Assembly: GCA_031385045.1 (NCBI GenBank)
Contig: JANNBC010000021.1
Coordinates: forward strand, 1 to 64,000
Reading direction: 5' to 3'
Length of the DNA: 64,000 nucleotides
Origin: a bacterium
GTDB lineage: Bacteria > Bdellovibrionota_C > UBA2361 > CALJRW01
Shown one piece after another: positions 48,138 through 51,954 of the stretch. The notes under the pieces are model-generated. The model did not search any database. It was not told where the DNA came from and saw only the letters and a program-made list of their open reading frames with translations. Position 1 is the stretch's first letter. Every line of letters begins with the position of its first letter. A program made the translations under genes and the position numbers.

Positions 48138-50351
48138 TTAATGCAAGAATCTTTTAATTCTTGTAAGCATTAATTTATAAGAAGTATCTTTGCTAATAAA
48201 ATCACTTGCGCCTAATTCGAATAACATGGCTTCGTTATCTTCAGTATCAATCGCCGTTAACATTACTACTGGTATTCTTTGAAGATCTAGATCTTTCTTG
48301 GCTGAAATTAAAAAATCTTTACCATTCATGATCGGCATTTCGTAGTCACAGAGAATAACATCAGGTTGAAAACTCTTAGCTTCTGCTAAGCCCTCTTTGC
48401 CATTAATGGCCTCTTTCACTTCAAATAAATTACTTTTTAACATGACACTTAACAAATACCGGGCATCGTCACTATCATCAATTACTAGAATTTTTGGTTT
48501 AGCGATCGACTGCGAAGGAATGCGAGTTTCCAAACGCCGCATTGTTGATTCACTACTTGCAATTGCCTCAGTGCGATTATCAGCAGATTGATCTAATTCT
48601 TTTTGACGGATAATATTTTGGGCTTCAATCCTAATTTTATTCACTTCCTCAACGGAAATTGATATGGTCTTTGGTCGTGCCCGCTCAGCTTCGGCACTTT
48701 GTTCAATAATATAAGGTAGTGCTTCCTCTAAAGAGGTTGTGCCATCAGTTAGTAAATCAGCGGCAGCTTCGTGAAGATCACGAAAGCCAGCTTCTTTTGC
48801 TGTGGAAATTACCTGCGTTAAGCTGGCACTATTAAAAATTAAACCAGCAATTTCACTAGTAATCCTAAGGAAACTATAAATACCAACTCGTCCCTTATAG
48901 CCACTACCATTACATTTATGACAACCTTTGCAGGTGTACATAATAGAGTTCTCGACATCAAAGCCAGAGAAATTCAAAGCATTTTGATACTTGATATATT
49001 CAATCTTAGGAAGTGGAACCTTACAGTCGTTGCACAGTCGTCTGACAAGACGTTGTGCTAATACTCCCGCTAAATTGGCAGCGATCATGGAACAGTCAAT
49101 TCCTAAGTTTAATAATCGAGTCACAGCAGATGGTGCAGAGTTAGTGTGTAAAGTTGAAAGAACTAAGTGACCAGTATCAGCTGCTTGTAGGGCGATCTTT
49201 GCTGTCTCCGCATCGCGAATCTCCCCAATCATAATAACATCAGGATCTTGTCGTAAGATCGATCGTAACGCGGCTACGAAATCCACGCCGATGTTATGAT
49301 TAATTTGAATTTGGTTAATACCCTGAATTGTTTGTTCGATTGGATCTTCTACTGTTTGAATATTTCCAGCAGTCTCTTGGCAGAACTTTAGGCAGGTATA
49401 TAAAGTTGTTGTTTTACCTGAGCCAGTTGGTCCAGTTACTAACATTAATTTACCAGTAGAAGATAATATATCTTTCATCTGATTTTCTAAAGCTGGATAT
49501 AGTCCTAGCGTAGAGAATTTTAATGAATCATAGTTGGACTTTAAAATCCTCATTACGATCTTTTCGCCATAAGGGGTTGGTAGAGTAGATACCCTCATGT
49601 CATATTTTTCTTTACCAATACCAATTCGTAATTTACCATCCTGGGGACGACGTCGTTCTGAAATATCTAAGCCAGCAAGGATTTTAATTCTACTGGCGAT
49701 GTTGTTTTTTAGTTCAGCATCAAACTCCATGAATTCTTCCATGGTTCCATCAATTCGAAGACGCACTTTCACAACTTCTTGTTTCGGTTCAATATGAATA
49801 TCACTAGCATCTCTAGTGACACCACCAGCCAGAATTTCATTGCAAATTCTAATCGCGGGAGCATCATTTTTATCCAGACCCTCTTCTTCTCCATCACGTT
49901 CCGCAACTACATTAAGGTGGGAGTTTTTTTTCTTTAAGATTTCTAGAATTTTAAGTTCATCAGCAAGAACTAGTTCTATATCTTTGGCATATTCAAATTT
50001 AAGCCAATTCTTTATTTCGTAATCTAATGGGTTGCAACAGGCAACAATTAAAGTTTGGCCATGGTCAATAATTGGCAAGCATTTTTTCTCAATAAGCTGA
50101 TCAAGTTCAACGCGGTGAATCAGACGATCAATCATTAATTGATTTTTAACCTCTTCCGAGTCTAAATCATAGAAGTCTATATGGAATTCTTTGGCTAAGG
50201 CTTCATAAGCTAAGTCCTTATCTAAAAATTTATTTTCATCTAAGTAGCGGATTAATCCACGCTCATCCTTTTCAATTTCCTCAAAGTCAGGGACAAAGGG
50301 AATCATTCGAAGCTTAAATAAGATTTTTGCGAGGTTAAATTTATTACTCAT
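48138..50351 (-). CDS. PilB/GspE-family ATPase with C-terminal response-regulator receiver domain
   Basis: ASDIHIEP, RPQDG, GPTGSGKTTT, LRQDPD, STLHTN, CxxC/CxxC; C-terminal LVIDD...LCDYEMP...MLT...FISK. Confidence 0.92.
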   Translation of the reverse strand: MSNKFNLAKILFKLRMIPFVPDFEEIEKDERGLIRYLDENKFLDKDLAYEALAKEFHIDFYDLDSEEVKNQLMIDRLIHRVELDQLIEKKCLPIIDHGQTLIVACCNPLDYEIKNWLKFEYAKDIELVLADELKILEILKKKNSHLNVVAERDGEEEGLDKNDAPAIRICNEILAGGVTRDASDIHIEPKQEVVKVRLRIDGTMEEFMEFDAELKNNIASRIKILAGLDISERRRPQDGKLRIGIGKEKYDMRVSTLPTPYGEKIVMRILKSNYDSLKFSTLGLYPALENQMKDILSSTGKLMLVTGPTGSGKTTTLYTCLKFCQETAGNIQTVEDPIEQTIQGINQIQINHNIGVDFVAALRSILRQDPDVIMIGEIRDAETAKIALQAADTGHLVLSTLHTNSAPSAVTRLLNLGIDCSMIAANLAGVLAQRLVRRLCNDCKVPLPKIEYIKYQNALNFSGFDVENSIMYTCKGCHKCNGSGYKGRVGIYSFLRITSEIAGLIFNSASLTQVISTAKEAGFRDLHEAAADLLTDGTTSLEEALPYIIEQSAEAERARPKTISISVEEVNKIRIEAQNIIRQKELDQSADNRTEAIASSESTMRRLETRIPSQSIAKPKILVIDDSDDARYLLSVMLKSNLFEVKEAINGKEGLAEAKSFQPDVILCDYEMPIMNGKDFLISAKKDLDLQRIPVVMLTAIDTEDNEAMLFELGASDFISKDTSYKLMLTRIKRFLH

Positions 50352-50387: not shown

Positions 50388-50688
50388 GTCATTTAAGCTA
50401 ATTTATTAAGTAAGATTAGAGAATGTTTGCAAAACCTTACGTTCTAGGGCTAATCGTATATTACTAGCAATCAATTAATCCAAAAAGATAATAAAACCAT
50501 CCGTTCTTAAGATATCCTTTAGAAAATAAGCGATTCATATTTTTAGGAACTTTTAATGCTTATCCTTCCGGTTAGAGTGGGAATCAGATAGTAGAAATTA
50601 TTCCTAATATAGACCATTGAAATATAAAGACTTTTGGAGATTATCTTGATGCTCAATTTGCAAAGTTAGGTTATGGGGGATTATAGAT

Positions 50689-50726
50689 AAAAAAAGGGGA
50701 CATTGGTTTTGACGCCAATGTCCCCT
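50689..50726 (-). terminator. Intrinsic terminator ending a non-coding minus-strand transcript
   Basis: AGGGGACAUUGG-N8-CCAAUGUCCCCU followed by a U-run (A7 at 50689-50695 on +). Confidence 0.85.
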
Positions 50727-51330
50727 AAATTCGAATTTCGATCAGTCTAAACTGCAAGAATAGTGGTTAGCTAAACTTGAGGGCAGAGTATAAATTATAT
50801 TATTAATTAGCTTCGAAGCGTTTTTAATGCGCTCTGACTGGTAGCTAAAAAATCAATTTATAATAAATTAAGTTAATCAGACTCAAGTTCGGAGTTACTT
50901 GTAAGTATTGATTCCTGACAATACCATGCTAGTCTTCGATATTCTTTTCTATTGCTCTAACAAAAGCAGTTTCCTAGCTTTTAGTTATTATTTACAGGGC
51001 ACTCAGTCGCACTGTAATCTATTAAACACTATGCAAGTTAAGTGTTTGTTCCTTCGGTAGTACTACCTTAGAGTATAGCGTCCTTGCAGACTAACTCTTG
51101 GAACTGTGCTGTGTTTTGTTTGATAAACCGACAAACAATTGTTAAAAATTTAATTTTAACTAGCACCACAAAATTAATTGTGTCTGAAAATTTTTTTCAG
51201 ATTTCGTTTTAGCCACTAAGTTCTCAGGCTTAGTAAAGCTCTAGTAGTTATTTTGAGAAATAACCACTAATTAACGATGGCAATTAATATCTTTATTAAT
51301 TTAATTCTTCTGACCCAGATCTCTATATGA
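50689..51330 (-). ncRNA. Candidate large structured non-coding RNA (~600-640 nt), family unassigned
   Basis: No ORF of 60 aa or more; more than 10 hairpins, multi-way junctions, complementary loops; G-U wobbles favour the minus strand; terminator at 3' end; possible TTAACT-N17-TATAAC promoter with -10 at 51341-51336. Confidence 0.6.
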
Positions 51331-51540
51331 ATCTAGTTATATTCCAATTAAAATGTTAAGTTAAGCAAAAAGTAAGAAGAAGATTTTTTTTATTTTTTAG
51401 ACTTGCTAGCTTTAAGTTTGTTAAATTTTCTCTTAGGTGGAAAGGCTAGCTAACTTCCTTAATTCCTCCAGCTTCCAATTCAATCTGCTTGAAGTAAGGA
51501 CATTAGGATATTTTAATGATTTTAAAACATTGTTTTGAAA

Positions 51541-51954
51541 ATGAGTGATATTTTTAGATTCCACCAATACCAAGAGACAACAGAGAACATTCAAGTCTCA
51601 GTGACGCCACAGTTTTTGCCTGAAGAATCTAGTATTATCAATAAGTTATATACATTTTCATATTTAATCAATATTGAGAATTTACGATCTGAAACAATTC
51701 AGCTAGTTAGCCGTCATTGGTTGATTTATGAGAATCAAACACTGACTGATGAGGTTAAAGGTGAGGGCGTTGTTGGTGAGCAACCAATTATTGAGCCACG
51801 AGGGGTTTATGAGTATCGTAGTTATGTTCAAATAGGTTCAGTTTACGGACAGATGCAAGGAAGTTATCAGTTTCTTAGACCCAATAAATCCATGATTGAA
51901 GCGAAAATTCCAATTTTTGATTTAGTATATTTAGATAAAAATTTTATTCATTAG
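51541..51954 (+). CDS. apaG: ApaG (Co2+/Mg2+ efflux-associated DUF525 protein)
   Basis: QLVSRHWLI, VKGEGVVGEQP, GQMQGSY. Confidence 0.93.
   Translation: MSDIFRFHQYQETTENIQVSVTPQFLPEESSIINKLYTFSYLINIENLRSETIQLVSRHWLIYENQTLTDEVKGEGVVGEQPIIEPRGVYEYRSYVQIGSVYGQMQGSYQFLRPNKSMIEAKIPIFDLVYLDKNFIH

Follow-up and report, generated by a model that had tools for sequence, protein, structure and literature searches.

The locus at positions 51330-50690 on the minus strand of the window (the whole 64,000-nt stretch of bacterial DNA analyzed here) is a chromosomal gene that stands alone and encodes a large structural non-coding RNA, whose family is absent from Rfam. Its nested multi-way-junction fold is well supported by covariation, one loop-loop pairing covaries in a distant homologue, and further tertiary contacts between loops are likely. 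Taken as a whole, the locus is probably best explained by a structural RNA that is packed by loop-loop pairs and acts as a scaffold or store.

The gene (50690..51330, minus strand) spans ∼620-640 nt including its terminator, with an uncertain 5′ end between about 51300 and 51335; the genome of the window (G000) is the reference for all coordinates. A candidate promoter, TTAACT-17-TATAAC (51336..51364, minus strand), was read by eye and has the same hexamers in the closest relative, G001; it overlaps the candidate returned by a scan, TTAACA-18-TAGATT (51359-51330), and the region holds no excess of promoter-like sites (6, versus 5.4 expected by chance). Transcription would end at an intrinsic terminator (50687..50726, minus strand; 12-bp stem at 50726-50695, followed by a U run), which carries one compensatory change in G001. 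The limits given by the initial annotation (50752..51269) are too narrow, as the RNA reaches ∼60 nt further 5′; these 60 nt are identical in G001 and pair with the 3′ part of the RNA. On the RNA strand of G000 the fold is far more stable than that of shuffled sequences (z -5.38 and -5.10), and none of the open reading frames on this strand, small ones included, is common to the homologues. The gene sits in a 1.18-kb gap between an ATPase gene (48138-50351, minus strand) and apaG (51535-51954, plus strand; NCBIfam NF003967, above cut-off), which lies outside the RNA and is transcribed away from it, head-to-head. ApaG is the sole neighbor common to all three genomes that have the RNA, and this link may be one of gene order alone. 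The ATPase is PilB/GspE-like, with a response-regulator receiver domain fused at its C-terminus, and scores under every curated cut-off listed. There are no tRNAs in the window.

Among 124 genomes of the phylum, three have the RNA; all belong to one family and carry it as a single copy in the same place, head-to-head with apaG. Searching 41 genomes at the DNA level recovered a single relative, G001, with 90% identity and the same gene order; a second such search, of 91 genomes, likewise found one relative. Identity to G001 is 88-92% over 51400-50701 versus 66-86% elsewhere in 52300-50001, so the RNA is more conserved than its flanks and the neighboring genes. The third homologue, G002, belongs to another genus of the same family, and was found as a weak match via apaG loci, in the same place and orientation. 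Its RNA is about 950 nt long (versus about 620 nt in G000 and G001), folds with a z of -7.95, has no Rfam match, and has only modules in common with G000. The base of a two-hairpin junction carries GCCAUCGU in both; the other modules are UUGUGGUGCU with AGCAC at some distance after it, a UUAAAU loop, and the three-way junction of the core, after which comes a hairpin with UUGC. A core model, R1, matches only the three family genomes (3/124; 3/40 with laxer filters) and none of the apaG loci of 13 other genomes. Similarly, scanning all species genomes for the pattern gave seven loci, of which two were true; over the span of the model these two equal the loci L002 and L154, and they do not count as additional homologues. 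Downstream of the G002 RNA, its contig (L172) carries three tandem ∼167-nt units right after the terminator (about 2460-1990, minus strand, read by eye), a 5′ fragment of a tRNA-Thr (1480-1428) and, 1.3 kb from the RNA, a whole tRNA-Thr(TGT) (1261-1186). These are followed by open reading frames of 245 and 73 aa (1157-6), the shorter of which we take to resemble an AlpA-type excisionase (no NCBIfam match), and this region is probably the edge of an integrated element.

The RNA is a new family of large, ornate RNA that matches no catalogued family. No Rfam model reached its gathering score in the window, and searches of the G000 and G002 loci at E values up to 10 returned unrelated sub-threshold matches only. 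The ROOL model (RF03087) had no match at E up to 10 on either locus, nor on the whole G000 genome, where no control genome gave a match either. The GOLLD model (RF02032) was over its cut-off in none of the three genomes and absent from the G000 and G002 loci, its single weak match (E 4.5) lying at a different locus; the OLE model (RF01071) was found in none of the three genomes (with no control match either) and on neither locus. Housekeeping RNAs were considered as the identity of this gene and rejected: RNase P, tmRNA, and SRP RNA were each found elsewhere in the genome above cut-off, and 6S RNA, which has no RF00013 match in the three genomes, is a ∼190-nt rod, whereas the candidate is branched and three times longer. 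The 6S search extended to E 0.1 in G000, G001, and G002, which are 91-97% complete. BLAST against phage and plasmid sequences gave chance pieces of 25-45 nt only, and no viral homologue was found in four viral-contig pattern scans (55, 1, 0, and 6 loci) or two phage-record searches. A metagenome pattern scan gave 83 loci, none of them true. Across 166 loci, blastn and nhmmer recovered only G000, G001, and a weak match later shown to be G002; among the loci from the 1-locus viral and the 83-locus metagenome scans, none had both loops fully unpaired. Three core-like loci (L181-L183) were rejected as lying inside long open reading frames. A 514-nt non-coding gap between phage tRNAs (L185, 588-1101) was also rejected, as it folds no better than shuffles (z -0.39). 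This gap in the phage tRNA cluster carries several short hairpins. A literature search, with most subscription papers outside its coverage, returned no description of this RNA.

Sequence-read contigs from relatives (differing at 24 of 267 and 83 of 558 letters) provide a further view of the gene. In two RNA studies, the long contigs are confined to 50725-51301: a 558-nt contig of the run X7 lies wholly on 50741-51300, and the pieces from X12 end at 50725 and 51295. The RNA contigs stop at both gene ends without loose ends there, and a contig from a DNA run, X9, runs on into both flanks. These limits are a weak hint of a discrete transcript, from contigs that carry no strand, start, or level; they cover only this gene, and contigs cannot rank expression. 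Among the 40 of 290 differences listed, the read contigs add at least four compensatory pairs (51065/58, 51156/45, 51162/10, and 50935/50879).

Comparison with G001 supports the nested fold: of 204 pairs in a structure that we built by hand, 179 are the same, 11 are compensatory, 6 are changed on one side, and 8 are broken or gapped. Three genomes, two of them 90% alike, are too few for real covariation statistics, and a control on these three rows, which ignores kinship, was reached by 18 of 500 shuffles. The main domain is closed by a 13-bp long-range helix (51295..51307 with 50877-50865, 5′ strand first), which has one A-C mismatch in G000 and is perfect in G001 (p 0.91). Within it, a local hairpin (51241..51270, p 0.92) holds UAGUGGUUA (51269-61); in G001, one of its pairs changes in a compensatory way and one G-U pair is broken. 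The conserved core (51024..51110) comprises a three-way junction (GUUCC/GGAAC), which bears the GCAA hairpin and a second, small one, and then the CUUGCA hairpin; it is the best alignable stretch of G002, where 3 of its 20 pairs are changed on both sides. A second three-way junction (50879..50935) places the UCAGG (50918-14) and CCGA (50892-89) loops side by side, and its closing pair is A-U in G000, G-U in G001, and G-C in X7 and X9. The 3′ part contains a long hairpin (50789..50862) with CCAGUC in an asymmetric internal loop, in which G001 has three compensatory changes, four one-sided changes, and one broken pair, and a hairpin with a CAAG/CUUG stem and a CUAACCA loop (50755..50779; p 0.79-0.80 in G000 and 0.95 in G001), which takes in the 3′ CUUG together with most of UAACCACUA. 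The loops UUAAUU (51177-51172) and UUAAAU (51153-51148) contain A/U palindromes, the latter being identical in G002 and UUAAGU in G001.

The initial annotation had proposed a network of complementary loops on this RNA, built from short matches whose weight lay in their number and their placement in loops. All 11 motifs are located on the minus strand at the positions it gave. Their placement in loops holds for CCUGA, UCAGG, UCGG, CCGA, and CUUGCA, which are mostly unpaired in the nested ensemble (probability unpaired 0.64-1.0), and less well for the rest: the U and last G of UGCAAG pair together, giving a U-G-closed GCAA tetraloop, and GACUG and CAGUC are partly paired. It would take 5.2 kcal/mol to free the 40 bases of the kissing loops. 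The argument from number did not stand, as the count of matches is ordinary when compared with shuffles; their strength and one-to-one fit are modestly above chance. In the hand-built structure, which was drawn with knowledge of the loop matches and leans their way, the four pairs of the initial annotation are the four strongest of nine matches and are disjoint, involving eight loops. At a cut-off of -7, no pooled shuffle of that structure and a single within-loop shuffle (400 of each) attained their summed stacking of 37.2; at -5, 47 and 33 of the 400 did so, and 151 and 119 of 400 equalled the match count. With a blind minimum free energy (MFE) fold, the sum was reached by 6/200 and 12/200 shuffles and the count by 49/200 and 52/200, and with refolding of each shuffle the sum was reached by 3/60 and 1/60. 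Among native low-GC segments of the window, 1 of 38 outscored the loop-pair sum of the RNA. Thus the case rests on strength and one-to-one fit. Additionally, G001 leaves every one of the 40 kiss bases unchanged but differs at 18 of the 184 unpaired bases outside them (Fisher p 0.025), so that all four loop pairs are kept in this relative; in the distant G002, only UGCAAG/CUUGCA shows a compensatory change.

That pair, kiss 3 (51083..51088 with 51032..51037), is the best supported contact, and the G-C to C-G exchange in G002 argues strongly for it. The G002 counterpart, GCAACG/CGUUGC, also has 6 bp, a complement reached by 37 of 5000 shuffles: four pairs are kept besides the exchanged one, and one end pair is lost and one gained. 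Freeing these bases costs 5.8 kcal/mol, versus a duplex of -6.9 kcal/mol. In G001 and X12, CUUGCA is kept although flanking loop bases change. It is highly probable that this contact fastens the conserved core to the hairpin that comes after it. The 3′ CUUGCAG, which had been offered as a second partner for UGCAAG, is not free for this role, being paired at six of its seven bases (probability unpaired 0.12-0.19) in a stem that G001 extends (p 0.95).

For the other three pairs, which are unchanged in G001, the case for tertiary contact is moderate. Kiss 4, GACUG(A) with CCAGUC (51003..51008 with 50841-36), is kept although the stem changes, and position 51003, A in G000, is G in G001, X7, and X12, which lengthens the kiss to 6 bp. 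A counterpart in the matching region of G002 (UACUUUA/UAAAGUA, 7 nt) is suggestive and of uncertain homology, with complements as good in 177 of 5000 shuffles, or in 174 of 2000 when the whole 3′ domain is searched, and a nested partner for the strand. Kiss 4 probably ties its hairpin to the 3′ arm. Kiss 1, CCUGA with UCAGG (51224..51228 with 50918-14), was not found in G002, where the loop is AAAUAAAAA, and it shows no covariation; within this genus, it is rather likely that the junction clamps a 5′-domain loop in this way. Kiss 2, UCGG with CCGA (51128..51131 with 50892-89), comprises 4 bp (-3.5 kcal/mol) and is rivalled by a GGUU/AACC pairing; a similar clamp on a second 5′-domain loop is favored by a narrow margin, again within this genus. 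The GGUU of the loop UCGGUUUAU (51129-51126) can pair with the AACC of the CUAACCA loop (50768-50765), overlapping kiss 2, and AACCA is present in G002 too. The corresponding region of G002 has UCAG and an AACUCUGA; we considered UCAG/CUGA as a compensatory version of kiss 2 and set it aside as ambiguous, since this CUGA can also pair locally, closing a junction (p 0.40), and aligns equally well with another stretch. Kisses 1 and 2 are probably absent in G002. The simplest topology there has one GUAA-capped hairpin replacing the two kissing hairpins of G000, with both partner loops changed, and such a joint loss is consistent with a partnership without proving it.

A more skeptical reading accepts the RNA as real and treats most of the loop matches as incidental, the GCAA serving as a GNRA tetraloop that docks in a helix and the GC-rich loops binding a protein or target. 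The ordinary match count fits this account, as do the U-G pair that closes GCAA in the MFE fold, the recurrence of short words (UCAG, CUGA), and the blind fold of G002, which has no loop pair at the -7 cut-off. GCAA is indeed a GNRA tetraloop in G000 and G001. However, G002 lacks a GNRA loop there and keeps a 6-bp complement with a compensatory change, and so a mere GNRA loop at kiss 3 is disfavored; the disjointness of the strongest pairs and the lengthening of kiss 4 by variation at 51003 also speak against coincidence. We regard this reading as improbable, and the strongest of its rivals to a packed fold.

The initial annotation had also suggested a conformational switch, based on a 9-bp helix between 51269-61 and 50769-61. 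This helix exists on paper, has a pair probability of 0.0000, and costs 8.8 kcal/mol to force; a perfect long-range 9-mer equally strong occurs in 86 of 1000 shuffles. In G001, the 5′ strand is UAGUAAUUA, which breaks the helix (long-range duplex -10.3 to -1.3 kcal/mol), whereas the local stem is preserved there, with A-U replacing G-C. A broader form of the switch, in which UAACCACUA (50769-61) pairs with a 5′ UAGUGG(C/U)UA strand and unfolds local hairpins, gains from a repeat at 51218-10 that can form 8 bp with 50769-61 in G000 (at a cost of 4.9 kcal/mol) and 9 bp in G001 (5.5 kcal/mol), UAACCACUA being unchanged in G001. Against it, the local stems are kept through one-sided and compensatory changes, the three perfect long-range 9-mers of G002 are weaker and located elsewhere, without an equivalent of the 51218-10 helix, and no regulated output is evident. 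A second state through the repeat is therefore unlikely, and a switch of either form has little probability in our judgement.

The position of the gene invites comparison with cis-acting leaders, since the ATPase gene is on the same strand and begins ∼340 nt after the RNA terminator; alternatively, the RNA could be a ligand sponge of the merRNA type, for which the sequence-conserved, aptamer-like core and the precedent of merRNA in Bdellovibrio (PMC3627812) would speak. However, repeats and a tRNA follow the RNA in G002, with no ATPase gene, and the gap between RNA and ATPase differs among G000, G001, and X9, so that cis-regulation of the ATPase is unlikely. The c-di-GMP-I riboswitch has no match on the RNA core, and its model (RF01051) gave seven sub-threshold matches across the three genomes, none on the contig of the RNA gene, a result that speaks against that ligand only. 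Leader and sponge together are very unlikely, marginally more so than the switch. Least probable of all is a mobile ribozyme or guide RNA, domesticated or lacking an ORF (a group I/II intron, or omega-RNA type). Such RNAs are typically of this size, with many domains and long-range loop pairs, and the G002 copy has an apparent integrated element beside it and a tRNA 1.3 kb away. This reading is opposed by the lack of any Rfam match at E up to 10 in the G000 or G002 RNA, by the single copy in the same place in three genomes, by the absence of an interrupted or nuclease gene alongside, and by the absence of a joint in the three RNA runs covered, out of eight with a small share of matching words.

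For the packed structural RNA that we prefer, the following working is proposed. With a promoter and a terminator of its own, the gene would yield an RNA that folds into nested multi-way junctions, after which loop-loop pairs would pack the domains: kiss 3 would lock the three-way-junction core onto the next hairpin, kiss 4 would tie a hairpin to the 3′ arm, and, in this genus, the two-hairpin junction would clamp two 5′-domain loops through kisses 1 and 2. Three or four such contacts would hold one fixed compact fold rather than a switch. By analogy with what has been proposed for ROOL, GOLLD, OLE, and merRNA, we infer that the RNA may be abundant and serve as a scaffold or store, and that its sequence-conserved core may be the working or binding site.

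Some contacts could also form between copies. The small hairpin of the core has a palindromic loop, GUAC (51060..51063), which is a candidate for a self-kiss between two copies; because adjacent loop bases cannot pair within one chain, such self-pairing would need two of them. The loop is GUAC in G000 and G001 and CUAG in G002, a single event, and X7 has a compensatory pair change in the stem of this hairpin. An alternative account of GUAC/CUAG is a special intramolecular tetraloop fold. In PMC12286853, a palindrome-switching tetranucleotide supported the intermolecular kiss of OLE. We consider contacts between copies, most plausibly through the GUAC/CUAG loop, and hence a multimer, to be possible at somewhat less than even chances. 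More tentative still, and on balance doubtful, is the view that this family is a further class of RNA-only assembly, chromosomal and in a free-living lineage, in which copies are joined by the palindromic core loop and modular kisses, and the 620- and 950-nt homologues form related particles that differ in their contacts, with kisses 1 and 2 either both there or both lost. If true, the G000/G002 pair would be a natural experiment on the evolution of RNA quaternary structure. Large, ornate bacterial RNAs are few, and this one is chromosomally inherited, with named contacts and two natural variants; its host is an uncultured freshwater bacterium and its family is narrow (three genomes), which limits genetics.

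Among known systems, merRNA of Bdellovibrio bacteriovorus (445 nt; PMC3627812) is alike in being a stand-alone, lineage-restricted large RNA with a host labelled Bdellovibrionota, and is known for massive, phase-specific expression. It has a c-di-GMP riboswitch, whereas no c-di-GMP-I match was found in this RNA, which is also longer. OLE (RF01071), given as a dimer in PMC12286853, shares a length of about 600 nt and a loop tetranucleotide that switches between palindromes; it differs in sequence and host, its model has no match here, and no gene for a partner protein was identified beside this RNA. GOLLD (RF02032), described there as a 14-mer cage, is similar in its freshwater origin, in its large length variation with common modules, and in a setting near a tRNA, as in the G002 copy. 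However, GOLLD conserves its 3′ region, whereas the central core is the common part here, and it is often above 800 nt, compared with about 620 nt (G000 and G001) and 950 nt (G002). ROOL (RF03087), an octamer by cryo-EM in the same paper (PMC12286853), is also about 600 nt long, with many junctions and several loop-loop pairs. ROOL is set in phages and prophages near tRNA islands; in contrast, the present RNA is without an Rfam match, chromosomal, and fixed beside apaG among housekeeping neighbors. Covarying kissing loops are a trait of ROOL, and here one kiss covaries and three are conserved or ambiguous. PMC12286853 states as unresolved whether cage formation is common among large, ornate bacterial RNAs, and the RNA described here is a candidate for RNA-only assembly, like a few other large RNAs.
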